Notes: generated by a model from the letters alone, not told the origin. Counted from the first letter of the stretch, positions 35,071 to 53,612 are shown. The stretch is 64,000 nucleotides of DNA from an uncultured delta proteobacterium (GCA_963745835.1 CAVUZH010000014.1:96001-160000), one strand, 5' to 3'. Numbers and translations are program-made.

Positions 35071-36830
35071 TGCCTCATCGCAGAACCGCGATTGCCGATC
35101 GCCTCAACGATGGCCACAGAGTCCGGCGCCAGTTCGATGCCGTTGCCAACGAGTTTAATTTCTTTATCCGAAGCAAGGACGATGCGCGCATCTTTGCCGA
35201 TGCTTAGCGGCGTTCGCTGCCGGCAGTCGCTTAGATTACATGCTACCGCTATCGGACCACGCGCCATGACCAGCCATTTCGCTTGCTCGTCACAGGTTAC
35301 GGTGACACGGTCCAGCCGTCCATCGGAGAGCGCGGCCAATTCATGGCGCAGCCGGATCACTTGGCGGTGCCAATCGAGCATCTCAGCATGCGGCCCGCCT
35401 CTGCATTCTTCCCACACGAGCTTGGAACGGTCGAAGGTCTCAAGCGCTTGCGGATCCGGAACATCGTTCGAGTGCGCGCTGAAGGCGGCAAATTCGCGCC
35501 GGCGGCCTTCCGTTACCAAGCGGCCGAGTTCAGCATCTTCATGATTTGTAAAATACAAAAACGGCGAACTCGCGGCCCATTCTTCGCCTTGGAAAAACAT
35601 CGGAATGAAAGGCGCGCTCAGCACTAAGGCAGCAGCGATCTTAAGCCTTCCGAGACTTAAGAGATGACTGCTCCGTTCTCCTTTGGCGCGGTTACCAACC
35701 TGATCGTGATTCTGCAAGTAGCCGAGAAAAGAGTGGCCGAGAATTCCCTTGGGAGGTCTTCCATGTCTGCGTCTGCGAAATGCCGAATAATTACCGTCAT
35801 GGACGAATACCCGCTCGATTGCTTTGGCCAAATCCGCCAGTGAGCCGAAATCGGCATAGTAGCCGTCGCGTTCACCGGTGAGCACAGTATGCAACGCATG
35901 ATGGAAATCATCGCTCCACTGAGCGTGGATACCATAACCGCCGATCTCCTGGGAGCGTACGATTTTAGGATCATTGAGATCGCTCTCGGCGATCAGAATC
36001 AAATGCCGGCCGCTTTGGGCCTCCAGTTCGGTCACCTCACAGACCAGCTGTTCAAGAAGGTGCGTAGCAGAGGTGTCGATCAGCGCGTGCACCGCATCGA
36101 GGCGCAGTCCATCGAAGTGATAATCGCGCAGCCACATCAACGCGTTGTCGCATACAAAACGCCGAACTTCATCGCTGTCCGGCCCGTCGAAGTTTATCGC
36201 CTGGCCCCAGGGCGTGGCATACCGCTCAGTGAAATACGGTCCAAAGCGCGCCAGATAATTCCCCGCCGGTCCCAAGTGATTGTAAACGACATCGAGAATC
36301 ACCGCCAAGCCGCGCCCATGACAGGCATTTACCAGACGCTTTAGCTCATCCGGCCCGCCATAGGCATGGTGCGGCGCGTACAGGTCGGCGCCGTCATAAC
36401 CCCAGCCTCGGCTACCGGAGAACTCGGCCACCGGCATCAACTCGATATGTGTGATACCGAGGTCGACTAAATAGTCGAGCTTGTCGATCACCCCGGCAAA
36501 AGTTCCTTGCGGCGTGAAAGTACCGACATGGAGCTCGTAGATAATGGCCGCGGATAGCGGTCCGGCTTGCCAGCGCTGATCGGTCCATGAAAATGCTTTA
36601 TGATCGACCATGCGTGAGGCGCCATGGATGCCCCGGGGCTGCCAGGGCGAGCGCGGGTCGGGCAGAGGCTCACCGCCATCGAGCACGAAGGCATAGTCAA
36701 CACGATTTTGATCGAAAGCTAGCTCGCCGTGCCACCACCCGTAATCAGTGGCCGTCATCGGCTGCCGGCTGCCGGCAACATCGAGTTCAACCCGTTGCGC
36801 ATGAGGCGCCCATACTCGGAACGGAATCAT
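35067..36830 (-). CDS. treZ: Malto-oligosyltrehalose trehalohydrolase (GH13)
   Basis: FRVWAP, YELHVGTF, WGYDG, DVVYNHLGP, LRLDAVH, QNHDQVGNR. Confidence 0.93.
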   Translation of the reverse strand: MIPFRVWAPHAQRVELDVAGSRQPMTATDYGWWHGELAFDQNRVDYAFVLDGGEPLPDPRSPWQPRGIHGASRMVDHKAFSWTDQRWQAGPLSAAIIYELHVGTFTPQGTFAGVIDKLDYLVDLGITHIELMPVAEFSGSRGWGYDGADLYAPHHAYGGPDELKRLVNACHGRGLAVILDVVYNHLGPAGNYLARFGPYFTERYATPWGQAINFDGPDSDEVRRFVCDNALMWLRDYHFDGLRLDAVHALIDTSATHLLEQLVCEVTELEAQSGRHLILIAESDLNDPKIVRSQEIGGYGIHAQWSDDFHHALHTVLTGERDGYYADFGSLADLAKAIERVFVHDGNYSAFRRRRHGRPPKGILGHSFLGYLQNHDQVGNRAKGERSSHLLSLGRLKIAAALVLSAPFIPMFFQGEEWAASSPFLYFTNHEDAELGRLVTEGRRREFAAFSAHSNDVPDPQALETFDRSKLVWEECRGGPHAEMLDWHRQVIRLRHELAALSDGRLDRVTVTCDEQAKWLVMARGPIAVACNLSDCRQRTPLSIGKDARIVLASDKEIKLVGNGIELAPDSVAIVEAIGNRGSAMRQ

Positions 36831-39485
36831 CGGACTTCTTCCTCTCGTAACAAAAGCGCTACCGGAAAACGCTTTAACAGCTTAGCCACTGGAGCGACGC
36901 CGCCAGCCGACGTTTCGCCGGTGAGGTGATTGCGCCAACGTCCGTTGGGGATTTCGATGACGGTGTCGCCCCACTCTCCGGCGAGCTTCAAAGTCAAACG
37001 CGGCACCACCGTCACTGCGCGCTGGTTGCGCGCAAACGCGATGATATGTTCGCGTTTTCGCTCCGGATGGCGTCAATGCGCGGTAACTGTCCTGCGGCTG
37101 AAATAGTTTCCGCTCGTGCCGCGCTTTGAGAGTTTGCCGGATCAACCACAATTTAGGCAGACCCTCATCTGCCCGGGCCAATATCTGCTCGGGTGACATG
37201 CATTTTATCTCGGCAAGCAACCGGCGCCTCGATTGATAATCCACCGGCCGACGGTTGTCGGGATCGACTAGACTTAGATCCCAGAGTTCACTGCCTTGGT
37301 AAAAATCGGGAATGCCGGGGGCGGTGAGTTTAATCAGTGTCTGCGCCAGCGAATTATCCGGCCTGGCTCAACCAGCGGTCTGACGAAACTTTCCAGACTT
37401 TCCGTGAACTCGCAATTGTTCATGATGTCTTCGACGAAAGCTCGCAAAGCATCGTCGTAGATCGGATTCGGATCGGTCCAGGAGGTATGGGTCTTGGCCT
37501 CACGGGATGCTTTCTCCATGTAGGCAAGAACGCGCTCGATTTCGATCGGCCAGGCGCCGACCATGGTTTGATAAAGCAGGTATTCAGTATTTCGATCGGG
37601 AAAGCCCTCGCGGCGATAGCCGCCGTTGAGCTCGGCCCATCTTGTCACCGTCTCCATCCAACGCTCTGGAATTTCTGAAAGCAAATTGATGCGCGCGCGC
37701 ACATCCTCGCTGCGCTTCGTGTCATGTGTCGAGGAAGCGAGCATGGTGCGCGGCCAGCGTGCCTGGGCCGCGGCGCAGCCTAGGTGGAATTCATCTGGAG
37801 ACAGGCCGAAGCGTCCCGGATCGCCGCCCACTTCGTTCAGCGAAACCAGGCGGTTGAAACAATAAAAAGCGGTGTCTTCGACACCCTTGGCCATCACCGG
37901 CCCGGTCAGTTGCTGCAAACGCATGACCCACTCAGTCTCGAGCTGGCCGCGGTGGCGCAGGAGAAGAATGCCGCGAAAGAAATCGAACAACTCACTATCC
38001 AGGTCCGGCCGCCGCGCCTTGGCATCATCGATGGTGCGGTTGATGATTCGCGCATCCTCATCGCTTATAACTCCAGCTTCAGCGCGCACGTAAGTTCGAT
38101 AAATCGGGAAACACGCGATCAATTCGCGTAGCGCTTCGTGCAGCTCGTGTCGCGTGTAGTCGCGATGCCGGCGGTGGCGCTCGCAAATATCGACCAACAA
38201 AGCGGTCAGACGGTTGAGATCGCTGGCCAGAACCTCGCGCAAGACGAAATGTTTTTTGTCACGCACAACGCGCGGCAAAATCGGTCGGCTCGCCGGTGAA
38301 CTCGCCGTAAAACTCGGTCAGCGCCGCCTCCGCGGCCGGATCGACGAAAAGACTGTTCACGCGATAGATAAAGTCGTAGCCTGTGGTTCCGGCTATCGGC
38401 CATGATTCGGGAAGGCTTTCGCCAGGCTCGAGAATTTTTTCGGCTGTGATCCACGCCCGCGGGCACGCCGTATGCAGGCGATCAAAGTACTGTTCAGGAT
38501 CGCGTAGCCCGTCCGGGTGATCGACGCGGACACCGTCCAGCATCCCGCGATTAAGCCAATCGAGGATGAGCGCATGGGTTTGCGCGAACACCTGCTCGTG
38601 CTCCGACTGCAAACCCGCCAGTGTATTGATGTCGAAGAAACGCCGGTAGCCGAATTCGCGCCCTGCCGTGCGCCAAAACGCCAGGCGATAGTTCTGGCGC
38701 TCTAGTAGTGCATCCAACTGATCGGGATCCGAATTCACCTCAGCGACGATCTGATCGAGAGCCCGGGCGACTTGCGGCTGCTCTTCACAGAGCCGCACCA
38801 ACTGGCCTCGCAGGACCTCTTTGTTGCGGTGCCGCCTCTGCACCGCGGCCCAGTCAGTCGCCGTTGACGGCGGCAGTTGACGCAATGCCTCAGCGATAAA
38901 TGCTAAATCGTCCGAATCGCACCGTCGCGCGGCATTGGCGACTAGCTCATCCAAAGAGCGCGGCGAAACCGGGAACACATGATCATGATAACGGATAATA
39001 AACTGCCCGCCTTCGCGTTGCAGCGCGAGTTCGGCTTTTTCTAGCACTCGTCCGTAATGATCGCCCAGTACCGGCAGAAGAACCGTGTTGCGCAATTTGG
39101 CTTCGGGCGGATCCCAGTCGACATCGAAAAATGCCGCATAGCGGCTCGAAGGTCCGTTCTCGAGAACATCCCACCACCAGGGGTTTTCTCTGCCGCCGAT
39201 GGCCATGTGGTTAGGCACGATATCGAGCACCTGCTTGAGCCCATTTTCTTCGAGCGCGGCGCATAAGCGCGCATGACCCTCGGCTCCGCCGAGTTCCTCG
39301 TTGACCTGCTGCGGGTTCACCACGTCATAGCCATGCGTGCTGCCGGGAGCTGCTTGCAGGTAAGGTGAGCAATAAAGATGGCTGATGCCAAGTTCAGCCA
39401 GGTAATCGGTGATCGCGGCGGCATCGGTGAAGCCGAAGCCCGGATGCAACTGAATGCGGTACGTAGCCCGGAGATCAGGTGACAC
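36827..39485 (-). CDS. treY: Malto-oligosyltrehalose synthase (frameshifts near 38272, 37353 and 37057)
   Basis: ATYRIQ, STHGYDV, DIVPNHM, YRRFFDI, RVDHPDGL, EKIL, STHDTKRSED, LVDPDNRRPVD across four consecutive ORF pieces. Confidence 0.9.
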
Positions 39486-41581
39486 GCCGCAGCACCTTCA
39501 GCGATCGCGCCTCGACAGCAACTTCCTCGCCCGCCTTGTGCGACTCCTGTTCTTCCTGCGCTCGTGTGGCGGCGGTGTCCAAAACCACCGTCCATTCTTT
39601 GCCCCAGTTTTCTTTCGGGAGAACAAAGCGCAATGGTTCATGGTGAGCATTGAAGAGAACGTAATAGCTGTCATCGACGATCCGCTCGCCGCGCGGGTCC
39701 GGATCACCGATAGCTTCTCCATTGAGAAAAACTCCGACCGCTTTGGCAAATCCCTCGCCCCAGTGTTCCTCGGCCATCTCCACCCCTTCGGGCGTAAACC
39801 AGCCGAGGTCGGTGACCGCCGCGCCGTGAATCGGACGGCCCTGAAACCAGCGACGTCTACGGAAGACCGGATGCTGTTTGCGCAGTTCGATTAATTTAGT
39901 CGTGAATTCAAGCAAATCGTGATCGGCGGACTGCCCAATCAAACCAAGAGATCTCGTTGTCCTGACAGTAGCCGTTGTTGTTGCCCTTTTGGGTGCGGCC
40001 GATCTCGTCGCCGCCGAGCAGCATGGGAATGCCTTGGGATAAAAACAAGGTCGATAGAAAGTTGCGCTTTTGACGGTTGCGCAGCGCGTTGACTGCCGGA
40101 TCGTCGGTGGGTCCCTCCGCGCCGCAGTTCCACGAACGATTGTGACTTTCGCCGTCGCGGTTTTCTTCGCCATTGGCCTCATTATGCTTGTCATTGTAAG
40201 AAACCAAATCGTTGAGCGTGAAGCCGTCATGGGCCGTAATGAAGTTCACGCTTGCATACGGCCGTCGGCCCGTCCCCTCGTAGAGATCGGAGCTGCCGGT
40301 GAAGCGAAAGGCAAACTCACCCAGCGTCTGATCCTGTCCGCGCCAATAATCGCGCACGCAGTCGCGGTACTTGCCGTTCCATTCCAGCCACAACGGCGGA
40401 AAGTTTCCCACCTGGTAACCGCCTTCGCCGACATCCCACGGTTCGGCAATAAGCTTGGTCTGGCTAATGACTGGATCCTGTTGGATGATGTCAAAGAAAG
40501 CCGAAAGCCGGTCGACATCGTGCAGGCCCCGCGCCAAGGTGGACGCCAGATCGAACCGAAACCCGTCAACATGCATTTCGAGCACCCAATAGCGCAGCGA
40601 ATCCATGATCAGCTGCAGCACGTGGGGATGACGCATGTTAAGAGTATTGCCGGTTCCGGTGTAATCCATATAGAAACGGCGATCGTCGTTCATCAGGCGG
40701 TAATAGGCAGCATTGTCGAGTCCTTTAAAGGATAGCGTCGGTCCCAGATGATTGCCCTCGGCGGTATGGTTGTAGACCACATCGAGAATTACCTCGATGC
40801 CGGCTTCATGAAGCGCCTTGACCATCTGTTTGAACTCCTGAACCTGCTGGCCGGTCTGACCGCTCGAGGAGTATTCATTGTGCGGCGCCAAGAAACCGAT
40901 GGAATTGTACCCCCAGTAGTTGCGCAAGCCGCGCTCGAGAAGATGCGAATCGTGAACAAACTGATGGACGGGCATGAGCTCCACTGCGGTAATGCCGAGA
41001 CGCGTTAGATAATCGATCGCTTTGGGGTGACTAAGGGCGGCATAGCTTCCCCGCAATTCTTCCGGAATTTCCTCGAGCTTTTTCGAAAAACCTTTGACGT
41101 GCATTTCGTAAATGATTGTCTCGCTCCACCGGGTACGAGGATGGCGGTCGTTGCCCCAATCAAAAAAAGGATTGATCACCACGGATTTGGGCATGAAGGG
41201 AGCGCTGTCAGCTTCGTTGAGAGGGCCATCGGGATCATCGAAGCGGTACGAGAACACCGCTTCATTCCAATCCACTTGGCCTTCAACTGCCCGCGCATAG
41301 GGATCGAGCAACAGTTTCGCCGGACTACAGCGAATGCCGTCTCCTGGAGCCCAGGGTCCATGAACGCGGAAGCCGTAACGTTGACCAGGAACAATGTTAG
41401 GCAGGTAGCCGTGCCAGCAAAGACTCGTTGTCTCGGGAAGGTCGCAACGTGTCTCATTCCCCTGTTCATCGAACAAACAGAGCTCGACTCGGTCGGCTAC
41501 CTCGGAGAAAACTGAAAAATTAGTACCGGCGCCGTCATACGACGCGCCTAGAGGATAATTATTCCCCGGCCAAACCTTCAT
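39475..41581 (-). CDS. glgX: Glycogen debranching enzyme GlgX/TreX (frameshift near 39935)
   Basis: [53 protein letters not shown]; removing one G restores WFDWQSADHD. Confidence 0.93.
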
Positions 41582-41703
41582 CTAAACTACTCCCAGCGTG
41601 CTTCGAATGATCAGCCGGAAAGGATGGAGCGCGTCTCGATGTGATTCAATCGGCGATATTTCGATTGTCTGTTGGATTCTATGCTGGTTGAACATCTTGG
41701 TTC

Positions 41704-41719
41704 AGCAAAACGAATGCCA
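41704..41719 (-). promoter_or_regulatory. Sigma54 (-24/-12) promoter candidate for glgX-treY-treZ-malQ
   Basis: Minus strand TGGCATTCGTTTTGCT = GG-N10-GC with a close match to TGGCAC-N5-TTGCW, about 120 bp upstream of glgX. Confidence 0.65.
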
Positions 41720-42111
41720 CCAGCGTGGGGTTCCCACGCTGCATCGCAGTTGAGCAACTGAGATCACGTCGATTGCGCTAGAAACTGCGCGCGAATGTCT
41801 TTGTCATTCGCGACCTCCAGTCGACCGATGGACTGCTAGTGCCTTGCACGACATTCGGACGCGTTTATATTTTTCATCTAGGCTCAACCGATTAATGTGC
41901 GAATCTGAAACATCCCTTATTGATACCCTATCCCACGAACGCTACACGGTCGCATTTCAGAAGGAAGCACGCGTGATCCGAGGCAGCAGCCACTTGAGAG
42001 ACGCCTCTGCCGAAGCCAGCTGCGGGTTCGTGCCTGAAGTTGGTTTCGTAAGACATAAGAAAGTTCAAGCAAGCGGATCGAAAGCAACTCTCAGACTTCA
42101 TGAAAGACATT

Positions 42112-42127
42112 GGGCGTGATTCTTGCA
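42112..42127 (+). promoter_or_regulatory. Sigma54-like promoter candidate facing the diiron-oxidase cluster
   Basis: GGGCGTGATTCTTGCA = GG-N10-GC with TTGCA; weaker -24 match, about 360 bp upstream of the ATG. Confidence 0.35.
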
Positions 42128-42485
42128 CAATGTACTGGTTTGCGGCTCGTATGGCTTTAACAAACCTATCTGAGTTCTTTGTCGGACTACGCGCTAAATA
42201 AAGTGACCACGCTGCAGAATCTTTTGCTGGTCAGGCTGATATCTCTGAGGGCAGGAATCATTGGGGAGCATCGCCGGCCCTCAACCTATGATCCTATACC
42301 TTCGTAAGACGCGTTTGCGATCATAAGATCTTCCTTCTGCTCTGGCGCTTCCATGGAGCGAACAAACCGGGAAGATAATGCTTCCACCTCGAAACAGCGG
42401 ATTCAGCATTTCATCCTGGGGAAGTTATCGAAAACGCGTCGCCCTTGCAAGAACAAACTTGTCGAGCAGCAAACGGAGGCGATGA

Positions 42486-43652
42486 ATGCAAAGTGAGCAA
42501 GCCGAACACATTAACCGCGCGCACTCGAAGTATGCCGCAATGGAGGAGCCAATATTGCCAGCAGAGTACGGAGAAGCGGAAGAGAGCTTTGCCGAGCTCA
42601 TAAAATCGAAGTGCCTGGACCACTACGTCACAGACCGCCCTGCGCCTGTTCGGCGATTCGAAGCCGCAGTTGAGAAAGCACTAAGCTATATCTATCCGGC
42701 AGGTCATAAAGGTATTAAGCCTCATTCAGGCCAAGCTGACGACTGCGCCCGGCTGTTCTTGCAGCGAGTGCTTTATCGAATCAATCGTCTCAAACTTTTC
42801 TGGTATGACAACCTCCAGAACTACGATAATGAACGTTCCGCCTATCTGCATCGGCTGCGAGATAGGATCGAGCAGGCCTGGCAAGCATGGGAACTGTCGT
42901 TCTTGGATGTTGCCGCGCTCGGCGGTGAGAACGTAGGTGAGGCGCTGCTGCGCCGCGCGGCATACGATGTCTCACCCCCGCCGTCCACGACCGGCCTCTA
43001 TTTTCGAGATCACGTGGGCCGGGTCGGTTATCGGCGCCTCCTGGCCATCGCATCTCTGGATGGCTTGGTCGAAGCGAGCCAGCTGTCGCGCACCCTTGGC
43101 GGAGTTTCAAACGACATACACTCAATGCTGACGCGCGTCCTGGTCGAGGAGTACGGCGGCGGGAAGCTCAATCGTAAGCATTCCACTTTTTTTTCTGCGA
43201 TGCTAAGCGAGCTCGAGATGCGCACAGAACCGGAAGCCTATTTCGACCTGGTTCCGTGGGAGGTGCTCGCGGCCATCAACCACAGCTTCTTACTCTCAGA
43301 ACGCAAACGGTTTTACTTACGCTACGTGGGCGGGTTGCTCTACACCGAAATCTCCGTGCCTGCTGCGTTCGATAATTATCGCGCGGCGGCCGAGCGGCTC
43401 GTTTTGCCAAAGGCCGCTCGCGGCTACTGGGAACTGCATATCAGAGAAGATAAGCGGCACGGACAGTGGATGCTTTACGACATAGCGTTGCCGCTGGCGG
43501 CGAGATATCCGGCGGAAGCCTGGGAGATCACGCTCGGTTATGATCAACAGAAGTTGATCAGCGAGCGTTCCGGCGCAAGCGTCGCTCGATCCGTGCGGGA
43601 CGCGGAGGTCGAAGCGGCGCATCAACAAACTGTTCGCCAGAGTGCAGCATGA
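42486..43652 (+). CDS. Heme-oxygenase-like diiron oxidase (HDO; iron-containing redox enzyme family)
   Basis: Helical protein with ligand-like pattern LVE...EEYGGG..RKH...YTE...ELHIREDKRH; GGAGG RBS. Confidence 0.8.
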   Translation: MQSEQAEHINRAHSKYAAMEEPILPAEYGEAEESFAELIKSKCLDHYVTDRPAPVRRFEAAVEKALSYIYPAGHKGIKPHSGQADDCARLFLQRVLYRINRLKLFWYDNLQNYDNERSAYLHRLRDRIEQAWQAWELSFLDVAALGGENVGEALLRRAAYDVSPPPSTTGLYFRDHVGRVGYRRLLAIASLDGLVEASQLSRTLGGVSNDIHSMLTRVLVEEYGGGKLNRKHSTFFSAMLSELEMRTEPEAYFDLVPWEVLAAINHSFLLSERKRFYLRYVGGLLYTEISVPAAFDNYRAAAERLVLPKAARGYWELHIREDKRHGQWMLYDIALPLAARYPAEAWEITLGYDQQKLISERSGASVARSVRDAEVEAAHQQTVRQSAA

Positions 43653-44713
43653 GCCACGCTGGATCCGCCCCCTTTCGTTGCACGTACATCTTGCCGATCC
43701 GGCGTGTGCGCGCGCGTTCCCAGGAAGCTCATGAGTTGGCGGGATACTTCCGCGAACTTGCGCGTGAAGGTTGCGAAGTCCTGGTTGTGGACGGCTCCTC
43801 TCCTGAGATCTTCGCACAGCACGACCACGCCTGGCGTAAGCTGTGCCGCCACGTTCCAGTCGATCGAAGGTACACTTATCTCAATGGGAAAGTGAATGGG
43901 GTCCACACCGGCGTTGATCTTGCGAGCTGCAAAAGCATTATTCTCGCCGATGACGACATCCGTTATTCGTCCGAAGATATCCGGCGCGCGTGTAAGCTGC
44001 TTAAGCGGCACGATATGGTACGGCCGCAGAATTATCTCGCGCCGCTACCATGGTGGGCGCGAACGGAGGCGGCGCGGATGCTGATCAATCGAGGCGTTCT
44101 ACGATCCGGAGATTACCCCGGCACTTGCGCGTTTCGCCGCTCCGTGTGTCTGCGCTTCGGCCATTACGACGGGGACGTCTTGTTCGACAATGAAGAAATC
44201 GTGCGCCACTTCATCTTAAATGGAGGCGATGTCTGCTACGCACCCGATTTTTTTATTCTGAAGCGACCTCCAACATTGCGCAAATGGGTCGAGCAACGTC
44301 CGCGTCAAGCCTACGAAGACTTCGATATGCGCACGAAAACGATCCTGTTCATGTCTCTGCTACCCTCGGCAATCGCACTAGCATTGTTGAGTGGCGCCCG
44401 TGCTGCGCTGGTGTTTCTCCTCGTCGTATCAATCTGCGCGGCGGTCGTTGCCGGCCGTGGCCTGTTGCGGGATCAAGCGTATCATTTTTTTCCTGCTCAT
44501 TTGATCCTCTATGCGCCGCTGTGGATACTCGAGCGTGGTCTGAGCGTTTATTGGGCGCTGTACTGGCGCCTCGCTCACGGCGGTTATCCGTTCGGGGAAC
44601 ATTTGCTGTCCAAGGGAACTGGGCGAGCATGGAGCGCGGCTCGCGCGTGTATGCGAAAGTCGCACGCTTTGACGGGTCCATCGCGCCAGGGCCTAACCCG
44701 GTCGAGTGATTAA
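43649..44713 (+). CDS. Membrane-associated GT2 (GT-A fold) glycosyltransferase
   Basis: VLVVDGS, NGKVNG, LADDDIRY, QRPRQ, hydrophobic C-terminal helices; ATGA overlap with the HDO gene. Confidence 0.8.
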   Translation: MSHAGSAPFRCTYILPIRRVRARSQEAHELAGYFRELAREGCEVLVVDGSSPEIFAQHDHAWRKLCRHVPVDRRYTYLNGKVNGVHTGVDLASCKSIILADDDIRYSSEDIRRACKLLKRHDMVRPQNYLAPLPWWARTEAARMLINRGVLRSGDYPGTCAFRRSVCLRFGHYDGDVLFDNEEIVRHFILNGGDVCYAPDFFILKRPPTLRKWVEQRPRQAYEDFDMRTKTILFMSLLPSAIALALLSGARAALVFLLVVSICAAVVAGRGLLRDQAYHFFPAHLILYAPLWILERGLSVYWALYWRLAHGGYPFGEHLLSKGTGRAWSAARACMRKSHALTGPSRQGLTRSSD

Positions 44714-44730
44714 GATTAACGGAGAAAAGG

Positions 44731-46221
44731 ATGCTCGACAGCAAAGACGTGCACCGCTGGCCCGAACTCGGAGACATGCCGGCAGAGGAGTTCCGCGAAG
44801 CTCTGCATCGGGTTGCCGATTGGGTGGCAGACTATCGTGAGAGCATCGAAGAGCTGAGAATTTCGCCAGACATTGCGCCTGGCGAGATCAGCGCCCGGCT
44901 GCCGCAAGTTCCGCCCGAGGCTCCCGGACGGTTCAATGATATTTTTCGCGACTTTCAAAAATCGATAATCCCCGGCGTCGTGCACTGGGGACATCCTGCG
45001 TTCTTCGGCTATTTCGGCTCGACGACAACCGCTGCGGGAATTCTGGGCGAAATGCTGATGGGAGCACTCAATGTTAGTGCGATGACTTGGCGCACCTCGC
45101 CTTCCGCAACCGAACTTGAAACCTTGGTCCTCGACTGGCTGCGCCAGATGCTTGGGCTTCCCGTGGACTATACAGGTGTCGTTTACGACACCGCTTCAGT
45201 AGCTGTAATGCATGCCCTGGCGGCGGCGCGTGAGAATCTCGGTGTCAATGCCCGCGCGCACGGTTTATGCGGGCGGCCCGAAGTTCCTGGCTTGCGGATT
45301 TATGCCTCAGATCAGGCGCACAGCTCAGTTGAGAAAGCGGCTATCACCCTTGGCATCGGCGAACAAAATGTGCGCCGAGTGCCATGCGAGACGACCTATC
45401 GCATGGAAGTATCTGCGCTCCGCAGCGCCATCGACACGGACTTGCGCGGCGGCCTGCTGCCGATGGCAGTCATTGCCACCGTCGGCACAACTTCGACAAC
45501 CAGCGTCGATCCGGTGGATGAAATTGCCGCGCTATGTGACGAGCACCGGTTATGGCTGCATGTTGACGCGGCGTATGGTGGAGCGATGGCTCTCTTGCCG
45601 GAAGGTCGTTCCGTGATGAAGGGAGTCGAGGCGGCTGACTCCATTGTAGTCAATCCGCATAAATGGTTATTCGTCCCGCTCGACTTCAGCGCGCTCTACC
45701 TCAGAAGGCCGGAGCTCCTGCGCGCAACCTTCTCGCTCGTCCCCGAGTACCTGCGCGGCGATGCCGAACAGGCCGAACGCAACTATATGGACTACGGCAT
45801 ACAACTTGGTCGCCGCTTTCGCGCTCTCAAGGCCTGGATGGTTATCCGCAGCTTCGGCACCGAAGGGCTTGCCGCCCGGATTCGGGAGCACATTCGCCTG
45901 GCGCGCTTGTTTGCATCCTGGCTCGATGCCGATCCGGAGTTCGAGCTGCTGGCGCCGGTGACAATGGCTGTGGTCTGCTTCCGCATAGCGCCCCATGGGC
46001 TTGGAACTAGACAGGCGGTGGACCAAGAGCTTAACGCTTTTAATCGACGGCTCGTCGAAGCAGTCAATCGCACCGGCGAAGCCTATCTAACCTACACCAC
46101 ATTAAATGGCCATACTGCAATGCGGCTAGCGGTCGGCAACATCTTAACCACTGAGCGTCATCTCACGAAGGCTTTTGATCTGATCAGGCGTGAGGCCGCT
46201 CGGCTTTGCCCAGCTCGTTAA
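44731..46221 (+). CDS. Group II PLP-dependent decarboxylase, aromatic-L-amino-acid decarboxylase-like
   Basis: HWGHPAFFGYF, SPSATELE, HSSVEKA, WLHVDAAYGG, NPHKWLF, GRRFRALK. Confidence 0.9.
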   Translation: MLDSKDVHRWPELGDMPAEEFREALHRVADWVADYRESIEELRISPDIAPGEISARLPQVPPEAPGRFNDIFRDFQKSIIPGVVHWGHPAFFGYFGSTTTAAGILGEMLMGALNVSAMTWRTSPSATELETLVLDWLRQMLGLPVDYTGVVYDTASVAVMHALAAARENLGVNARAHGLCGRPEVPGLRIYASDQAHSSVEKAAITLGIGEQNVRRVPCETTYRMEVSALRSAIDTDLRGGLLPMAVIATVGTTSTTSVDPVDEIAALCDEHRLWLHVDAAYGGAMALLPEGRSVMKGVEAADSIVVNPHKWLFVPLDFSALYLRRPELLRATFSLVPEYLRGDAEQAERNYMDYGIQLGRRFRALKAWMVIRSFGTEGLAARIREHIRLARLFASWLDADPEFELLAPVTMAVVCFRIAPHGLGTRQAVDQELNAFNRRLVEAVNRTGEAYLTYTTLNGHTAMRLAVGNILTTERHLTKAFDLIRREAARLCPAR

Positions 46222-46288
46222 CGCCGTTGCCGCTTCATAGAAGAGCATTACTAGCAGTCGGCAATGCCGCCGAAATCATTGAAGACCG

Positions 46289-47563
46289 ATGTATTCACAA
46301 GTAACAGTCAAAATTGAAAGCCGCGTCCATCTTCTGAGCACTCTCGCTGAAGCAGCCGAGCTAGAGCACGACCTGATGTGCATGTATCTCTATGCTGCTT
46401 TCAGTTTCAAGCGAACGACCGCTGAAGGTCTTACAGTCGAGGAGATGGACGCAGTCAATGGTTGGCGCAAGACGCTTCTCAATATCTGTGTTGAAGAGAT
46501 GACCCATCTGGCGCTGGTTGCCAATCTCACCACCGCAGTCGGCGGCGGCGCGCATTTTTTTCGTCCCGAGTTTCCCGTGCGACCCGGGTATTTCCCTTCC
46601 GAGTTTGTTCTGGGGCTCGCGCCATTTAACCAGGAGACGCTTCAGCACTTTATATTCCTTGAGCGCCCTGAGGACGAACCTATAGAAGATGCCGACGAGT
46701 TTATTCCGGAGAAAGAATACACCCGCAGCAGCGCGAGGGGCCGGCTTATGGATCATACGGGTGACTACTCGACAGTCGGACAGCTCTATGAAGCTATCGA
46801 GTACGGAGTTGTGTCTCTGAGCTCCGCTTTAGGTGAAAGCAATCTTTTCTGCGGCTCCCCTTCTGTGCAGATCTCTCCCGACGACGTAGAATTGAAAGGG
46901 CTGGCAGTCGTAACCGACAAAGCTTCGGCTATGGAGGTGCTTCGGCTGATCGTTGAGCAAGGCGAAGGGGCGCGCACAACGAAAGGGTCGCACTATGATA
47001 AATTCAGCCGGATAGCCGAAGAGTATGACTGGCTCCTAAGGAAAAACCCAACTTTTGAACCAAGCAGGCCCGCGGCCAGAAATCCTGTGATGCGAAAGCC
47101 GACGACCTCGGAGCGGCGAGTTTGGGTTAATCAGACGCCCGCGTCTGATTATCTGGATCTGGCCAACGCACTATATGGCCTGATGCTGCGATTCTTAGTT
47201 CAGGTGTATTCAATGGAGAACCGCAGTCAGTCGGTTAAAAACACTCTTCTCAAAGCCGCGTTTTCCTTGATGCATGCAGTGGCCGCCGTCGCCACGCTGC
47301 TGACTAAGTTTCCTGCTAGTCGCGATTGCCCCGGAACGACGGCGGGAATAAACTTTGCCCTCAATAGGTATTTCACACCCTCCGAACTGACCAGTGAGAA
47401 GCTTCTTCTTATCGAGCGGCTTGACGAGATTCTGGATGGTCTGCGACCGCTTCGCGATGACGCGGAAGATCAGAGGGCGGGCGAGAGAAAGGAGCTCGCA
47501 GCTAGTCTCGATTCAGTAAAGAACACGCTCGGAAAAGTTCGAGAGTCCTTGGAGATCATCTAA
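46289..47563 (+). CDS. Ferritin-like domain protein (VioB/RebD C-terminal type)
   Basis: AAELEH...YLYA, VEEMTHL, FLERP, TVGQLY, IVEQGEG, SHYDKF motifs. Confidence 0.75.
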   Translation: MYSQVTVKIESRVHLLSTLAEAAELEHDLMCMYLYAAFSFKRTTAEGLTVEEMDAVNGWRKTLLNICVEEMTHLALVANLTTAVGGGAHFFRPEFPVRPGYFPSEFVLGLAPFNQETLQHFIFLERPEDEPIEDADEFIPEKEYTRSSARGRLMDHTGDYSTVGQLYEAIEYGVVSLSSALGESNLFCGSPSVQISPDDVELKGLAVVTDKASAMEVLRLIVEQGEGARTTKGSHYDKFSRIAEEYDWLLRKNPTFEPSRPAARNPVMRKPTTSERRVWVNQTPASDYLDLANALYGLMLRFLVQVYSMENRSQSVKNTLLKAAFSLMHAVAAVATLLTKFPASRDCPGTTAGINFALNRYFTPSELTSEKLLLIERLDEILDGLRPLRDDAEDQRAGERKELAASLDSVKNTLGKVRESLEII

Positions 47564-47786
47564 TCGAGCAAACGGGCGGCGACCTACAGGCGCTGCAAGC
47601 TCGCGTTGCGCGAGGGGCCGACCTCGTCAGAGTCAAAGTAGCGAGGAGGATTGCTGGGACGAGGCCAAGAACTCTCACACATTTTGCGGACCAGGCACGG
47701 CTGCGTAGAGTCCTCTGGGTCGATGGTGCTCGCGAGCCGAACACAGCATAGGACTACTTTCAAGAACCTCTGAGAAGGATCACTGA

Positions 47787-49649
47787 TTGAGCACTATCAA
47801 CAAAACGTCCGGAGCAAGACGTCCGAAGCCGCGAGGAAGTCTTGCGCGGGCTCGTGCCGTCCGCGGCGACAAATTGCCGTCGGTACTAATTCTTCCAACC
47901 CTAATTTTAATCATTGCTACTCTCTATTTGGGGCAAGCGTTTCTAATCCCGGTTGCGCTGTCAATCTTGCTGACGTTTCTCCTAACCCCAGTTGCCGATG
48001 CTTTAGAGCGGCTCGGCTTAGGGCGACTGGCTTCGGTGATGATTATCGTCGTTCTGGCCTTTTCGCTGCTCGCCGCAATCGGTTGGCTGGTAACGGTCCA
48101 GCTGACCACCGTCGCCAACGAGTTGCCGACCTATAGAAGCAACATCCGAGAAAAGATTAGCGATATACGCGGCGCCGGTAAGGGAGGGGCTCTCGAGAAG
48201 ATTCGCGAGACTGCCGAAGAGGTGAAAGAGGAATTTAGCAAAGACGAGCCCGCAGCGGCCGCATCAAAGCCGCGCGAAGTTGTCGTTCAATCTGAGGAAT
48301 CGTCGACGTTCTGGCCCATGCCTCTGGCCACCGCGCCGATGTTGGAACGGATGGCTTCAGCCGGCCTGGTGATCGTGCTGGTGATTTTTATGCTCATCCA
48401 GCGCGAAAACCTGCGCAATCGTCTGATCCGTCTGATCGGTTATAGTCGAGTGACGATAACCACCAAGGCTCTCGAAGAAGCGACGCAGCGAATCAGCCGC
48501 TATCTGCTCATGCAATCAATTATCAACGCGTCATTTGGAATCGCAGTCTGCATCGCGCTTTACTTGTTCGGCCTGCCTTACGCGTTCCTGTGGGGATTCT
48601 TGGCTGCGGTACTGCGGTTTATTCCCTATGTCGGACCCGTTGCCGCGGCACTCCTGCCGAGCGTCCTTAGCATGGCGGTTTTTCCAGGGTGGACTTGGCC
48701 ACTCCTGGTGATTGCGACGATCATTGTCTTAGAACTCATCAACAATATGATTCTAGAGCCTCTCCTCTACGGTGAAAGCGCCGGCGTATCTGAAGTCGGT
48801 CTTCTCATAGCGGTCGCGTTCTGGACTTGGCTTTGGGGACCCATCGGTCTTGTTCTCTCGACGCCGCTGACAGTCTGCGTTGTCGTGATCAGCAAATATA
48901 TGCCTCAATTGGATTTCATTGGAGTTCTGATGAGCGACGAGCCGGTGATCGAGCCAAGCATCAGCTATTATCAGAGACTGCTGGCCATGGATCAGGACGA
49001 AGCGGCGGAAATAGTCGAAGAGCATCTAAAGTCACATCCTAAAGAGGAGATCTTTGACGATCTCCTGGTGCCGGCGTTAAATTATCTCAAGAGAGATTTC
49101 GCTTTCGGTAAGATGGCGGACAACGAGCAACAATTTGTCCTGCAAGCGACCCGCCAGATAATCGAGGAACTTGACGTCTTCAAAACGGAAAACGGGTCGT
49201 TGCCGGCACCGGCCGCGGAAATCGCAACGGCAGCTGCAACGCAAACTCCAGAGGGCACGCCCAAGGTCCAAATCATGGGCTGTCCGGTTCGCGATGAAGC
49301 CGACGAGCTGTCTTTGCTGATGCTTCGACAGTTACTCGATCCTCTCCGTTATGAACTTGAGGTTATTGCCGATGAGCTGCTGGCGGCCGAGATTATCGAC
49401 CAGATCGCCGACAAAAAGCCTGCTTTAATTTGTCTTGCTTCGCTGCCGCCTGGCGGCTTAGCTCAGACGCGATACCTGTGCAAACGATTACGCGCGCGAT
49501 TTCCCGACAGCAAGCTTATCGTCGGTCGATGGGGTGGCCGAACCGACAATAGCAACGCGCTGACCGATGCCGGCGCCGATAGGATCGGGAATAAAATTAT
49601 CGAAACCCGCGATCAGATCGTCCAGTTAAGCCAAATTCTTCCTCACTGA
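47787..49649 (+). CDS. AI-2E family transporter with a C-terminal cytoplasmic extension
   Basis: LIPVAL..LLTFLLTP, LRFIPYVGP, LEPLLYG, WLWGPIGLVLSTPLT; about 230-aa soluble tail; start uncertain. Confidence 0.85.
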   Translation: MSTINKTSGARRPKPRGSLARARAVRGDKLPSVLILPTLILIIATLYLGQAFLIPVALSILLTFLLTPVADALERLGLGRLASVMIIVVLAFSLLAAIGWLVTVQLTTVANELPTYRSNIREKISDIRGAGKGGALEKIRETAEEVKEEFSKDEPAAAASKPREVVVQSEESSTFWPMPLATAPMLERMASAGLVIVLVIFMLIQRENLRNRLIRLIGYSRVTITTKALEEATQRISRYLLMQSIINASFGIAVCIALYLFGLPYAFLWGFLAAVLRFIPYVGPVAAALLPSVLSMAVFPGWTWPLLVIATIIVLELINNMILEPLLYGESAGVSEVGLLIAVAFWTWLWGPIGLVLSTPLTVCVVVISKYMPQLDFIGVLMSDEPVIEPSISYYQRLLAMDQDEAAEIVEEHLKSHPKEEIFDDLLVPALNYLKRDFAFGKMADNEQQFVLQATRQIIEELDVFKTENGSLPAPAAEIATAAATQTPEGTPKVQIMGCPVRDEADELSLLMLRQLLDPLRYELEVIADELLAAEIIDQIADKKPALICLASLPPGGLAQTRYLCKRLRARFPDSKLIVGRWGGRTDNSNALTDAGADRIGNKIIETRDQIVQLSQILPH

Positions 49650-49752
49650 TTGACGCGCAGAAATTCTCATCAGCAGCCGCGCTGCTTCGTTTAGAGCTTC
49701 CTTCGAATTCAATCTATTCCGATTAATTGCAACGATGCGCTGTACCACTCAC

Positions 49753-49780
49753 TTGGAATTAGCGCCTTGGTCAGTATAAT
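49753..49780 (+). promoter_or_regulatory. Sigma70-like promoter that would give a near-leaderless thiolase transcript
   Basis: TTGGAA-16 bp-TATAAT ending 8 nt before ATG 49789; no Shine-Dalgarno. Confidence 0.35.
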
Positions 49781-49788
49781 TGTGTTGT

Positions 49789-51297
49789 ATGCAATCGGTT
49801 TATGTCGCCGGAATCGGTATGACGAAGTTCGGTAAGGATCCGAGGTCCTTGGCCGAGATTTGCCATGACGCGGCTCAAACGGCGCTAACCTCTTCCGAAA
49901 TACAGGAAGTGGACGCAATTTATATCGGCGCCATGAATCCGGAGGAATTTACCGGTGACAGCAATATTGCTTCGCACATTGCCGACGCCCTGGGGCTAAC
50001 TGGGATCCCGGCGGTGCGTATCGAAACTGCGTCTTCCGCCGGAGCGGCGGCGATTCAGGCCGGTTTCCAAGCCGTAGCATCAGGTTATTACCGCCGCGTT
50101 CTGATTCTCGGCGGTGAGAAGATGACCCACCTCAGCACCAGCGCGACCACAAGAGTTTTGGCCGGCGTCATCGACAAAGAGGAACGCCAGTGCGGCGCCA
50201 CCATGCCGGCGTTGGCGGCGATGATCACTGAAAAATATCGCGAGAAATTCAATCTGTCACAGTCCCGGTTGGAGACGATGTTGTGCGCCGTCGCGGTAAA
50301 GAATCACGGCAATGGCGCGCATAACCCGATGGCGCAATTTCAGAAGCCGATCAGCCGCGAGACCTATCTGGCGAGCAAATACGTCGCCACCCCGCTGCGT
50401 CTTTATGACTGTTCGCCGATTACCGACGGCGCCGCGGCAGTCGTGCTTACCGGCGAAAAAACAGACGTGCGGTTGGCGGGCGTCGGTCAGGGAACCGGCC
50501 CGCTCAGCCTGCGAGGACGAGAGATTTTTACCTCATTTCCAGCCACCCGGATGGCGGCAGCGCGCGCCTATCAGATGGCTGAGACTTCGCCGCAGGGAAT
50601 CGAGTTTGCCGAGGTGCACGATGCGTTCACCCCCTTCGAAATTATCACCACCGAGGATTTAGGTTTTTTTGCCCCAGGCAAAGGCGGCGATGCGGTCCTG
50701 GAAGGCGTCACCGCAATCGACGGACGGTTGCCGGTAAACCCGTCAGGCGGTTTGAAAGCGCGCGGACATCCCGTCGGGGCGAGCGGACTGGCGCAGATCG
50801 TCGAAGCGGTGAAAAGGCTGCGCGGCGAAAGCGGTTCAAAACATCAATTTAACCGAGGCCTGACACAGAGCACCGGCGGGCTTGCCAGCAATAACTTCGT
50901 CACCATTCTCGAGCGCACTGACGCATCGTTGCCGCGCACTTCTGGATTTCCGCAGCCCGCTCGGCAAGTCGCGAAGAGCCGCCCGGCGAAGATGCCACTG
51001 AGCAACGAGGGCGTGATCGAAACCTTCACGATCCTCTATGTCACCCCGGACGGATTTTTGCCGCCGCTGGCGCTCGCGTTGGTCCGGGAACAGAATGGTC
51101 GCCTGATCGTGGCGCAGGGAGAAGAAAGCAAACACCTGAAGATCGGCCGTGAAGTTTACCTGAAGCGAATTGAGGACTACTATCTCTTTACCCTCAAGGG
51201 ACGTTTCAAGATGGTCCAGGACTCTCTGAAAAGAAGTCTTTGGCAACGCGCCAGAGCTCTCGTAAGAAAGCCGATCCCTGCAGACGGTAAATTATAA
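49789..51297 (+). CDS. SCP2/archaeal-type thiolase-fold protein fused to a C-terminal OB-fold (DUF35-like) domain
   Basis: GIGMTKFG, DCSPITDGAAAV, EVHDAF, VNPSGGLKARGHPVGASG; ETASSAG at the usual ExACASG site; C-terminal GVIETFT..P.GF..PLALALV. Confidence 0.82.
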   Translation: MQSVYVAGIGMTKFGKDPRSLAEICHDAAQTALTSSEIQEVDAIYIGAMNPEEFTGDSNIASHIADALGLTGIPAVRIETASSAGAAAIQAGFQAVASGYYRRVLILGGEKMTHLSTSATTRVLAGVIDKEERQCGATMPALAAMITEKYREKFNLSQSRLETMLCAVAVKNHGNGAHNPMAQFQKPISRETYLASKYVATPLRLYDCSPITDGAAAVVLTGEKTDVRLAGVGQGTGPLSLRGREIFTSFPATRMAAARAYQMAETSPQGIEFAEVHDAFTPFEIITTEDLGFFAPGKGGDAVLEGVTAIDGRLPVNPSGGLKARGHPVGASGLAQIVEAVKRLRGESGSKHQFNRGLTQSTGGLASNNFVTILERTDASLPRTSGFPQPARQVAKSRPAKMPLSNEGVIETFTILYVTPDGFLPPLALALVREQNGRLIVAQGEESKHLKIGREVYLKRIEDYYLFTLKGRFKMVQDSLKRSLWQRARALVRKPIPADGKL

Positions 51298-51299
51298 TT

Positions 51300-51980
51300 A
51301 TGCTAGGCGCCAATCGAGCAGAAAAAAAATTCAGAGCGTCGGTTGAGGACGCCGCCGGCGAGATTCGAAAGGCAATCCTCCAAGGCAAGATATTGCCCGG
51401 AGAGCAGCTCTCGGAAGAAAAGCTGGCGGCCTCTCTCCGCGCCAGCCGGGTGGTGCTTCGAGAAGCGTTACGAGCATTAGAAGCGCAGGGCTATGTGACG
51501 TTTTTGCCCAATAAGCATGTAGTCGCCAGCAATCCATCGCGCGATGACATGCATGACTACTACACGATCGCCGGCGTGCTGGAAGGCTTGGCGGCGCGGC
51601 TTGCCGTAGAGAGAGCGCAGCCGGACGAGATCGCCCGCCTGCGCGAACTGCACCAGGTTCTCAGAGAAGCATGCCATAAGGGCGATGTGCTTCAGTACTT
51701 CGATGCCAACAGCAATTTTCATCGCTTCATCGCCGAGCTGTCGCACAACGAGCGGCTCTACCAGTTGATAGAGGAACTGCGGCGTGAAATTCAGAAAACC
51801 CGTCTGCTGTCGTTGCATATGCCGCAGCGACTCGACTATTCGATGCGCGAGCATGATCAGATCATGGATGCTTTTCTCAAGAAAAATCCCCAATTGGCCG
51901 AAAGCATGATGGTGCAACATCTCTCTAATCATTTGAAAGCCCTCGGAAAGGCCCTCGATTCGGGCAGCGAACCGCGCTAG
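51300..51980 (+). CDS. GntR-family (FCD) transcriptional regulator
   Basis: PGEQLSEEKLA...SRVVLREAL..LEAQG HTH; LEGLAARLA, NSNFH, EHDQI. Confidence 0.9.
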   Translation: MLGANRAEKKFRASVEDAAGEIRKAILQGKILPGEQLSEEKLAASLRASRVVLREALRALEAQGYVTFLPNKHVVASNPSRDDMHDYYTIAGVLEGLAARLAVERAQPDEIARLRELHQVLREACHKGDVLQYFDANSNFHRFIAELSHNERLYQLIEELRREIQKTRLLSLHMPQRLDYSMREHDQIMDAFLKKNPQLAESMMVQHLSNHLKALGKALDSGSEPR

Positions 51981-52224
51981 AGCGGCATCCCCTCGCGTAA
52001 CCCGCGCGCATCAAATACAGGGCACTTAACTCGCTCGTGAGTTCGATCCGGTTCTTTGTTTTGCTCATGCGCCGCTGACAATAGCCCAGCAGTTTAGTAC
52101 CTGCAGCGTAGCTGCGAGCTCAAAGCTTTAACCAGGAGATGACATCCGAACTGTTTTTGAGTAGAGTCCTCGCAATGGATTGCGTCCCGCGGCGGCCACT
52201 TCTTTTAGGCTTTGGAGGTAACGG

Positions 52225-53520
52225 TTGAATACAGCGTCTCGTGAATTTCAGATCATGGTCAAGACTGTCGGTGCCATCTGCAATCTAGATTGCCATTACT
52301 GCTATTACTTGAAAAAAGAGGAGCTTTATCCCAAGGGCTCCAACTTCCGCCTTAGTGATGAAACTCTCGAGCGCTACATCATCCAGCATATTGAGGCGAC
52401 ACCCAAAGAGATCGTCAGCTTCTCGTGGCATGGCGGCGAACCAACCCTGCTGGGCGTCGATTTTTTCCGCAAGGCCGTGGAGTTGCAAAAAAAGCACTTG
52501 CCGGCGGACAAGAAAATCATCAATGGCATTCAGACCAATGGCACGACCCTGGATGAGGAATGGTGCGAATTTTTTGCCAAAGAAACATTCTACGTTGGGC
52601 TAAGCCTGGACGGGCCGCAGGATCTGCACGACCATTACCGTGTCACCAAGGGACAGAAGCCCACCCACAAGCAAGTTGTCCACGCTTTCCACATGCTGCG
52701 CCGGCACAAAGTTCATGTCGATTTGCTGTGCGTCGTTCACGACATCAACGTGAAACATCCGATTGCCGTGTACCGCTATCTCAAAGAAATCGGCGGGCAG
52801 TACCTACAATTTCTGCCGCTGGTAGAAAAACCCGAGAAACCCGGCGATCCTGCCGGCTCGCGTTCGGTACCGGCGGCCGGTTATGGCGAATTTCTCTCGG
52901 CGATCTTCGATGAATGGGTGCGCCACGATATCGGCAAAGTTTTTATTCAGCTATTCGATGAGTCGGTGCGGCCCTTTCTCGGCATGGAGCACGCGCTCTG
53001 CATTTACCGTGAGACTTGCGGCGACGTGCCAGTCATCGAGCACAACGGCGATTTTTACTCTTGCGATCACTACGTTGAGCCAGAATACAAAATAGGCAAC
53101 ATCTATGAAAAGACTCTCGCATCGATGATCGATCATCCCGCGCAGCACGAATTCGGCAGGAAGAAATGGACGAGCCTGCCCCGGTACTGCATGGAATGCG
53201 AGGTTCGCAGCATGTGCAACGGCGGCTGCCCCAAGGACCGCTTCATTAAAACACCGGATGGCGAAGAGGGGTTGAATTATCTTTGTGCCGGACTGAAGAG
53301 CTTCTTCGTTCACAGCAAGCCCTATTTGAAAAAATTCGCGGAACTTGTCGATGCCGGCGAGGCGGGCGAAAAACTCATGCAAATCGTCCGCGCCGGTGAC
53401 GCTAAAAAGATCGTCCCTCAAGCCGGCCGCAATGATCCCTGCCCCTGCGGCAGCGGAAAAAAATACAAACGATGCTGTGGCGCCGGCAAATCCAGATCGC
53501 AGGCCTCGGTAACGCTGTAG
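52225..53520 (+). CDS. Anaerobic sulfatase-maturase-like radical SAM/SPASM protein with a C-terminal SEC-C motif
   Basis: [28 protein letters not shown]...[29 protein letters not shown]. Confidence 0.9.
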
Positions 53521-53612
53521 GACAGCCTACGCTACGGCCCGCTAATCTCCGATAACACTCACCGGCCGGACGAGGATTACGCTCTTAAAATCAAGATCGA
53601 AGGAGTCTGCGC

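Follow-up and report, generated by a model that had tools for sequence, protein, structure and literature searches.

A conserved operon linking a diiron oxidase of the heme-oxygenase-like family, a membrane glycosyltransferase and a decarboxylase in uncultured soil bacteria

A 64-kb stretch of DNA from an uncultured delta proteobacterium (CAVUZH010000014.1:96001-160000, assembly GCA_963745835.1; hereafter the window, in whose coordinates all positions are given) encodes a diiron oxidase of the heme-oxygenase-like family (HDO), a membrane glycosyltransferase of the GT2 type (GT2) and a group II pyridoxal phosphate (PLP)-dependent decarboxylase of the aromatic-amino-acid type (DC) in three consecutive, co-oriented genes. 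We show that this trio (42486-46221) is a conserved, transferable operon and the functional unit of the locus. Genes for a ferritin-like PF12902 protein (FER) and an AI-2E family transporter follow on the same strand (Table 1). A first-pass annotation, made from the sequence of the window, had grouped the first four genes into one candidate biosynthetic system, with the transporter as its exporter. The gene calls behind that proposal hold: the open reading frames (ORFs) and junctions between 42486 and 47563 agree with four co-oriented genes at the spacings it described, and key residues of HDO, GT2, DC and FER are present in alignments, as expected from its statement that the catalytic and ligand motifs are intact. 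The HDO stop codon is overlapped by the GT2 start in an ATGA at 43649-52, and the 17 nt between GT2 and DC include GGAG; the spacer between DC and FER is 67 nt (all three junctions read directly from the sequence), and a gap of 223 nt separates FER from the transporter gene.

Table 1. Genes and intergenic region at the trio locus, in window coordinates
Feature	Position	Strand	Description
HDO	42486..43652	+	388 aa; PF14518 2.1e-26; core gene 1
GT2-type membrane glycosyltransferase	43649..44713	+	354 aa; GT-A domain and C-terminal helices; core gene 2
Group II PLP-dependent decarboxylase, aromatic-amino-acid type (DC)	44731..46221	+	496 aa; PF00282 8.5e-101; core gene 3
FER, PF12902 ferritin-like	46289..47563	+	424 aa; adjacent, not a conserved member; lineage-specific indel
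AI-2E family transporter with C-terminal B12-binding module	47787..49649	+	620 aa; PF01594 3.8e-45, PF02607, PF02310; outside the conserved unit
Divergent intergenic region, glgX (-)/HDO gene	41582..42485	.	904 nt, non-coding

A conserved and transferable three-gene operon

A scan of one genome per species returned HDO relatives at 481 loci, of which the best 80 were examined with up to 10 kb of sequence on each side. Co-occurrence was counted only at loci with enough downstream sequence, and taxon labels are those of the records. A GT2 gene follows HDO at all 36 loci with room for it, and HDO, GT2 and DC stand in this order at 33 of 33 loci, comprising four of four labeled Binatia, 'delta' or Thermodesulfobacteriota, 28 of 28 labeled Acidobacteriota and one of one labeled Rokubacteria. 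The beginning of a GT2 gene is also visible on a betaproteobacterial contig that ends 367 nt past HDO. Because the order recurs at every testable locus of three lineage groups, it is more than a chance arrangement. The genes are often translationally coupled, with an HDO/GT2 overlap of 4 nt at 18 loci and a GT2/DC overlap that is often 8 nt, and the partner proteins are 56-96% identical across trio loci. By their record titles the carriers are soil or terrestrial taxa. The idea that HDO, the membrane GT2 and the group II decarboxylase belong together is thus borne out, and the expected recurrence of the system stands for these three genes, co-oriented in several phyla; it fails for the fourth, since FER occurs at 0 of 80 loci.

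The HDO family is highly conserved: identity stays at 53 to 94% throughout Acidobacteriota, Binatia, Rokubacteria, Nitrospirota, Nitrospinota and terrestrial Cyanobacteria. In a quick maximum-likelihood tree of 73 HDO sequences, the window groups with loci L001-L003 (approximate likelihood ratio test, aLRT, 100) as sister to L006/L009 (aLRT 97), and all of these are nested within a Pyrinomonadaceae/Blastocatellia clade (aLRT 99). Two changes on this tree account for the label 'trio', where shuffled labels need 24 on average, and one of the two is a locus at a contig end (L022). The HDOs of Cyanobacteria, Nitrospinota and Nitrospirota fall on the opposite side of the tree. Lateral spread of the cassette seems likely because the window clade is nested among Pyrinomonadaceae sequences and the trio-type HDOs cluster; the pattern indicates that the trio has probably been shared among soil Acidobacteriota (Pyrinomonadaceae/Blastocatellia), Binatia-like bacteria and Rokubacteria. 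A tblastn search of plasmids returned only distant HDOs, at no more than 31% identity.

FER and the AI-2E gene fall outside the conserved unit, because FER is missing at all 80 loci and the AI-2E gene is confined to the lineage of the window. A tblastn search with FER against the 80 loci gave no match at E <= 1. L001 has 273 nt, and L003 299 nt, in place of the 1511 nt of the window that contain FER (46247-47757); both loci are collinear with the window on both sides of FER, at 95% and 91% nucleotide identity, respectively. The L001/L003 spacer aligns with about 45 nt at the start of FER, and blastn-short gave nothing further; the repeats found around FER were short, chance-level direct and inverted ones, with no mobile-element signature among them. 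After DC, a full-length AI-2E match is present at one of the 80 loci (L003), and L001 ends 140 nt into a homologous gene. FER is a lineage-specific indel, and FER and the AI-2E gene are separate local neighbors of the trio.

These observations bear directly on the larger system of the first-pass annotation, in which the trio and FER act together and the AI-2E protein exports the product. Five co-oriented genes, with gaps of only 67 and 223 nt between the last three, speak for such a system, as do the intact ligand-like residues of FER, whose relatives are often fused to Fe-S domains. Yet FER is absent from the same site in L001 and L003 as well as from the full set of loci, an AI-2E gene follows DC in the window lineage only (L003 and the end of L001), and the third-codon-position GC content (GC3) of FER (0.576) is below that of the trio (0.625-0.638). 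With its claim to conservation largely refuted, we consider the larger system very unlikely, and we retain neither the ferritin-like gene nor the exporter as a member.

The three enzymes and their characterized relatives

HDO scores 93.2 bits against PF14518, for which the curated cut-off is 28.9, and so belongs to the HDO superfamily. The closest solved relatives returned by a PDB sequence search are PbrRohS (9pfx, 8e-14), SznF (2e-10) and HrmI (9e-4). Seven residues (E196, E222, H232, E288, H318, D322 and H325) do not vary among the 16 sequences aligned and correspond to SznF E189, E215, H225, E281, H311, D315 and H318. Six of them make up the core ligands, with E222 and H232 on core helix 1, E288 on core helix 2 and the HxxxDxxH motif (H318-x3-D322-x2-H325) on core helix 3. 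The seventh, E196, lies in the sequence DGLVEAS on auxiliary helix 2 and aligns to SznF E189 and the corresponding Glu of RohS. As judged from these alignments, HDO has the same 3-His/4-carboxylate ligands as SznF and RohS. The study of the RohS structure lists the six core ligands and, in addition, the seventh Glu, described there as known until now from just two HDOs, the N-oxygenases SznF and RohS (PMC13133933); a review estimates that the 3-His/4-carboxylate set occurs in about 25% of HDOs (PMC13108848). An HDO-GT2 complex prediction, run without controls, scored 0.00 and speaks neither for nor against binding.

By sequence, the window HDO shares with SznF a heme-oxygenase-like diiron domain and all seven ligand positions, the Glu of the auxiliary helix among them, but the match covers residues 186-360 only. 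The window protein has neither a cupin domain nor the N-terminal domain of SznF; PF14518 is the sole Pfam match in its 388 aa, which sets it apart from SznF-type N-nitrosourea synthases. The partners differ as well. SznF, with SznE, serves streptozotocin biosynthesis, a pathway not known to include either a GT2 or a decarboxylase of the aromatic L-amino-acid decarboxylase (AADC) type, whereas the window HDO is partnered by both. A sister HDO clade resembles SznF/SznE in being paired, and once fused, with an N-methyltransferase. RohS acts in azomycin biosynthesis, where it converts 2-aminoimidazole to 2-nitroimidazole, and the other azomycin genes are RohP, RohQ and RohR; homologs of these were not seen among the Pfam calls for the neighbors of HDO. 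RohS, the best solved relative, is a single-domain HDO with the seventh Glu (PMC13133933), but the window HDO has about 75 extra, highly conserved N-terminal residues.

GT2 has at least 1474 relatives. Its Pfam matches (GT2, GT21 and Glyco_tranf_2_3) are all sub-threshold, those to PF13506 and PF13641 included, although a precomputed PF00535 call is present on many close homologs; GT2 matches no NCBIfam family, and PDB sequence searches with GT2 and with FER gave nothing informative. The AlphaFold 2 (AF2) model built from 29 homologs (pLDDT 82.6, pTM 0.80) has long C-terminal helices after a GT-A domain. A Foldseek search of the PDB with this model placed PcManGT (6yv7, 2.8e-9) at the top and also returned ArnC, DPMS, GtrB and cellulose synthase, while the highest TM-scores were to hyaluronan synthases (TMq up to 0.63). 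There were 267 PDB matches at E <= 1e-3, and among the matches listed all are GT-A glycosyltransferases; GT2 shares 10-18% identity with the solved enzymes. D48 and D101-D102-D103, unchanged in all 29 sequences aligned, provide the upstream nucleotide-binding Asp and the DXD motif of the GT-A fold, and the Atlas neighbors of GT2 are GT2/GT21 clusters. Despite the sub-threshold Pfam score, the model thus confirms a predicted membrane GT-A glycosyltransferase. With its GT-A domain, DXD motif and C-terminal helices, GT2 resembles both PcManGT, DPMS, GtrB and ArnC and the hyaluronan synthase/GT21 enzymes. Polyprenyl-phosphate glycosyltransferases use a polyprenyl-phosphate acceptor, usually with a GT-C partner; no GT-C gene is conserved near GT2, and hyaluronan synthases give the higher TM-scores.

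DC scores 337.8 bits against PF00282, and its best PDB matches, all full-length, are CrTDC (6eew, 1.1e-110), a bacterial DOPA decarboxylase (7xin, 1.4e-110) and plant tyrosine decarboxylases (TyDCs). Aligned to CrTDC, it keeps the PLP lysine (NPHKW), SDQAHSS, HVDAAY and the loop Tyr (PEYL), in which we take the lysine to bind PLP, the His to stack on PLP, the Asp to contact the pyridine nitrogen and the Tyr to belong to the catalytic loop. The loop Tyr separates decarboxylases from aldehyde synthases. Because the PLP lysine, His, Asp and catalytic-loop Tyr are all kept, DC is a true decarboxylase and, by its residues, a complete AADC-type enzyme, presumably acting on an aromatic or closely related amino acid. 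It resembles plant TDCs and TyDCs and the 7xin enzyme over its full length (about 1e-110), with every catalytic residue in place; what distinguishes it from known aromatic L-amino-acid decarboxylases is that its gene is embedded in an operon with HDO and GT2.

All parts of the trio are of known enzyme families and together make a candidate core-less biosynthetic operon around an HDO. In agreement with the first-pass annotation, the locus has no non-ribosomal peptide synthetase (NRPS), polyketide synthase (PKS) or ribosomally made, post-translationally modified peptide (RiPP) core, and because of this absence rule-based genome miners would probably miss the trio. The annotation had also matched the combination to no characterized pathway, and searches of the full-text literature, with subscription-only papers and MIBiG outside their reach, found no description of it. 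The unusual N-O, N-N and C-C chemistry known from HDOs is growing fast, and to our knowledge nearly all characterized HDOs come from actinomycete or pseudomonad natural-product clusters. In the trio, abundant soil lineages that are uncultured keep an HDO of the SznF/RohS type firmly together with a membrane GT2 and an AADC-type decarboxylase, and close HDO orthologs in biocrust-type cyanobacteria use a different partner. Were the trio solved, HDOs would gain a new reaction or substrate and an uncharacterized GT2 family would gain a function; the work could also bring to light, in Acidobacteriota, a hitherto unseen class of glycosylated, N-oxygenated envelope components or metabolites.

Candidate pathway, alternative partners and rival readings

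We prefer, at roughly even chances, a reading in which the trio is a short, core-less pathway near the inner membrane that combines amine formation, N-oxygenation and glycosylation. Starting from an aromatic or closely related amino acid, the AADC-type enzyme would make a primary amine by decarboxylation. The 3-His/4-carboxylate HDO would then use O2 to oxygenate the nitrogen of this amine or of a guanidino compound, and the membrane GT2 would move a sugar from a nucleotide sugar to the resulting product or to a lipid acceptor. The outcome would be a membrane-associated or secreted glycoside, made at the cytoplasmic face of the inner membrane. Additional sugar-related genes accompany some trios: a GH-A-like TIM-barrel gene (398 aa, weak GH1/GH35-like similarity) is near the trio at nine loci, and UDP-galactopyranose mutase (Glf) and a GT4-like gene are each found at five. 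Accompaniment by Glf, GT4-like and GH-A-like genes within 6 kb of HDO was seen at L006, L021, L031, L033 and L042, and hints at a putative galactofuranose-containing glycoconjugate. The 64-kb window has no homolog of the Glf, GT4-like or GH-A-like genes, nor of the DDAH and methyltransferase genes described below.

Several points weigh against the amine-based pathway. Each of its chemical steps is a prediction, and the recurrence on which it builds was established for the best 80 of the 481 HDO loci. GT2 lies just under the curated PF00535 threshold (23.1 versus 23.3 bits), and the AF2 model of HDO, from a 16-row alignment, has a mean pLDDT of 47.8, so that the pocket is not inspectable. Sister HDOs that are 53-60% identical have no GT2 beside them (0/30 in Cyanobacteria/Sericytochromatia and 0/8 in Nitrospirota/Nitrospinota), and DC is likewise absent. 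Finally, a DDAH homolog is present at 25 Acidobacteriota loci; its presence, and the action of the closest solved relatives of HDO on guanidine-type nitrogens, speak for an arginine-derived HDO substrate.

The DDAH homolog (about 290 aa; loci within L004-L057) is directly upstream of HDO at 24 of these 25 loci and often overlaps the HDO start (for example, L022:6864-7733). It matches DDAH of Pseudomonas aeruginosa (1.8e-33) and human DDAH1 (about 1e-30) over its full length, and scores 187.7 against the NCBIfam dimethylargininase model, for which the cut-off is 340. C278 and H191 are invariant and align to the Cys and His of P. aeruginosa DDAH, presumably the catalytic pair, and on this basis the homolog is predicted to be catalytically intact. 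Apparent DDAH-HDO fusions at L010, L011 and L015 proved to be ORF-calling artefacts, the DDAH match lying upstream as a separate stretch.

A second kind of partner accompanies the sister HDOs. At 31 Cyanobacteria/Sericytochromatia loci these adjoin a HemK-like methyltransferase of about 240 aa with an NPPY-type motif in 31 of 31 (examples among L035-L080 include L059:11284-12009; protein P0242), and in Nitrospirota the HDO partner is a class I methyltransferase or a NUDIX gene. Because sister HDOs pair with methyltransferases or NUDIX genes instead, the substrate of HDO need not be the product of DC. A search of longer HDO forms found one 681-aa metagenomic HDO-methyltransferase fusion of the cyanobacterial type and neither an HDO-GT2 nor an HDO-DC fusion, a negative that counts as weak evidence. 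HDO with the NPPY-motif methyltransferase looks like a separate, putative two-gene system of terrestrial cyanobacteria. Taken by their gene content, the DDAH and N-methyltransferase contexts point to a guanidino or N-methyl substrate of HDO at least as much as to the DC product.

The strongest rival to the amine-based pathway is accordingly centered on guanidine, and we hold it to be doubtful but possible. In it, HDO would act like SznF and RohS and N-hydroxylate arginine, an N-substituted arginine or guanidine, and the DDAH homologs or N-methyltransferases would work on that guanidino group too, for example releasing hydroxylamine or N-methylhydroxylamine plus citrulline. DC and GT2 would supply or capture a second building block, and the DC product would not be the HDO substrate. 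Methyltransferase and HDO are paired in the logic of SznE/SznF, which is echoed by the sister HDOs with their NPPY-motif methyltransferase (31 loci, one fusion). The invariant Cys/His positions of the DDAH homolog, and its place next to HDO in Acidobacteriota, fit the same scheme, as does the seventh Glu that HDO has in common with RohS and SznF, its closest solved relatives (PMC13133933). Nevertheless, homologs of DDAH and of the methyltransferase are missing from the window and from its Binatia-like relatives, the DDAH homolog falls under the NCBIfam dimethylargininase cut-offs, HDO has no cupin domain, and the strict linkage of the AADC-type enzyme is left unexplained.

A different role, stress protection, is raised by DtpC, an HDO-family protein of Acinetobacter baumannii tied to survival under dry, oxidizing conditions, whose metal-ligand residues are reported to be required for desiccation survival (PMC13232832). 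The trio would in this case alter an envelope lipid or glycan, with the HDO family contributing to tolerance of desiccation or oxidative stress. Like DtpC, the window HDO has a possible link to such stress, standing beside trehalose/glycogen genes. Alpha-glucan/trehalose genes occur within 10 kb of HDO in four separate lineages (the window genes lie within 35067-41581): glgX-treY-treZ in the window and L003, glgX and treZ in L006, glgX in L025 and glgB at 11 Nostocales loci. The soil and terrestrial origin of the carriers and the modeled resemblance of GT2 to lipid- and polyprenyl-phosphate-directed enzymes would also suit this role. However, glgX or treZ is present at 0 of 31 Acidobacteriota loci, and among the conserved neighbors of the trio there is no GT-C partner, flippase or lipid gene. 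The likeness to DtpC is at the level of the HDO family, by description, with six ligand residues described and not seven, and DtpC is co-transcribed with the catalase gene katE, not with a GT2 or decarboxylase gene (PMC13232832). We judge stress protection as the function of the trio to be quite unlikely.

A broader proposal, which we rate as unlikely, would unite these contexts: the HDO family would represent an unrecognized, phylum-spanning pathway for N-oxygenation of an arginine-type guanidino nitrogen, with DDAH-linked and trio-linked outputs. If so, HDO and the DDAH homologs could free nitrogen at the level of hydroxylamine or NO, and HDO, DC and GT2 could make, at the membrane, an N-oxygenated and glycosylated amine that acts against desiccation or oxidative stress. 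This would provide a chemical counterpart to the DtpC phenotype and account for the recurring trehalose/glycogen neighborhood.

Neighboring genes and flanking regions

FER scores 153 bits against PF12902, with E26, E70, H73, E125, E226 and H235 invariant in 34 sequences, and its family comprises 3060 cluster representatives, the best of which is 53% identical. Its assignment as a VioB-type protein (iminophenyl-pyruvate dimer synthase) was rejected: against TIGR04492 it reaches 70.7 bits where 1250 are required, only the shared PF12902 region matches, and the full-length VioB equivalog is about 1000 aa as compared with 424 aa for FER. Among longer PF12902 homologs (about 650-800 aa; among P0245-P0339), nine of ten scanned carry Fer4_19 and eight of ten CDGSH. 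Because these longer homologs are fused to Fe-S domains, FER is probably a redox enzyme, and the domain arrangements suggest that PF12902 proteins may be a family of electron-fed diiron enzymes. No literature on PF12902 function was found in a full-text search. In the AI-2E transporter, the fusion to a B12-binding_2 plus B12-binding module (PF02607, PF02310) is kept at 95% in L003, and the protein could be a cobalamin- or light-gated permease.

Between glgX and HDO, the divergent intergenic region has a four-way identity of 0.3-0.86 per 50 nt among the window and its close relatives. No ORF common to the four was found there, indels break the reading frame, and the region presumably carries promoter and regulatory sequences. 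An Rfam scan of 36000-54000 gave no match at E <= 0.1, so a known riboswitch or leader is not present upstream of the trio. A consensus scan for promoters and terminators over 41500-50000 marked one weak promoter-like site at the glgX edge of the region (41586-41558, - strand), whereas upstream of HDO it gave none. Its counts were no higher than in shuffles, and the scan is therefore uninformative on operon structure.

Past this region, glgX, treY and treZ are encoded on the - strand. Within 36833-41581 (-), treZ is intact, glgX has a frame change near 39933-39935, and treY has frame changes near 38241-38269 and around 37053-37355 relative to the intact L003 gene. The broken glgX and treY are either pseudogenes or the result of assembly indels, and because they are broken the link to trehalose is weakened for this genome. 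The first-pass suggestion that the product is made alongside trehalose comes down to adjacency, next to genes of which glgX and treY are frame-shifted relative to L003.

Downstream of the AI-2E gene, 49780-54503 (+) is kept in L003. It encodes a thiolase with a C-terminal OB-fold domain, a GntR/FCD regulator, a DUF6282 amidohydrolase-like protein and a radical SAM/SPASM protein that scores 469.5 bits as an anaerobic sulfatase maturase (cut-off 349.45) and ends in a C-terminal SEC-C motif.

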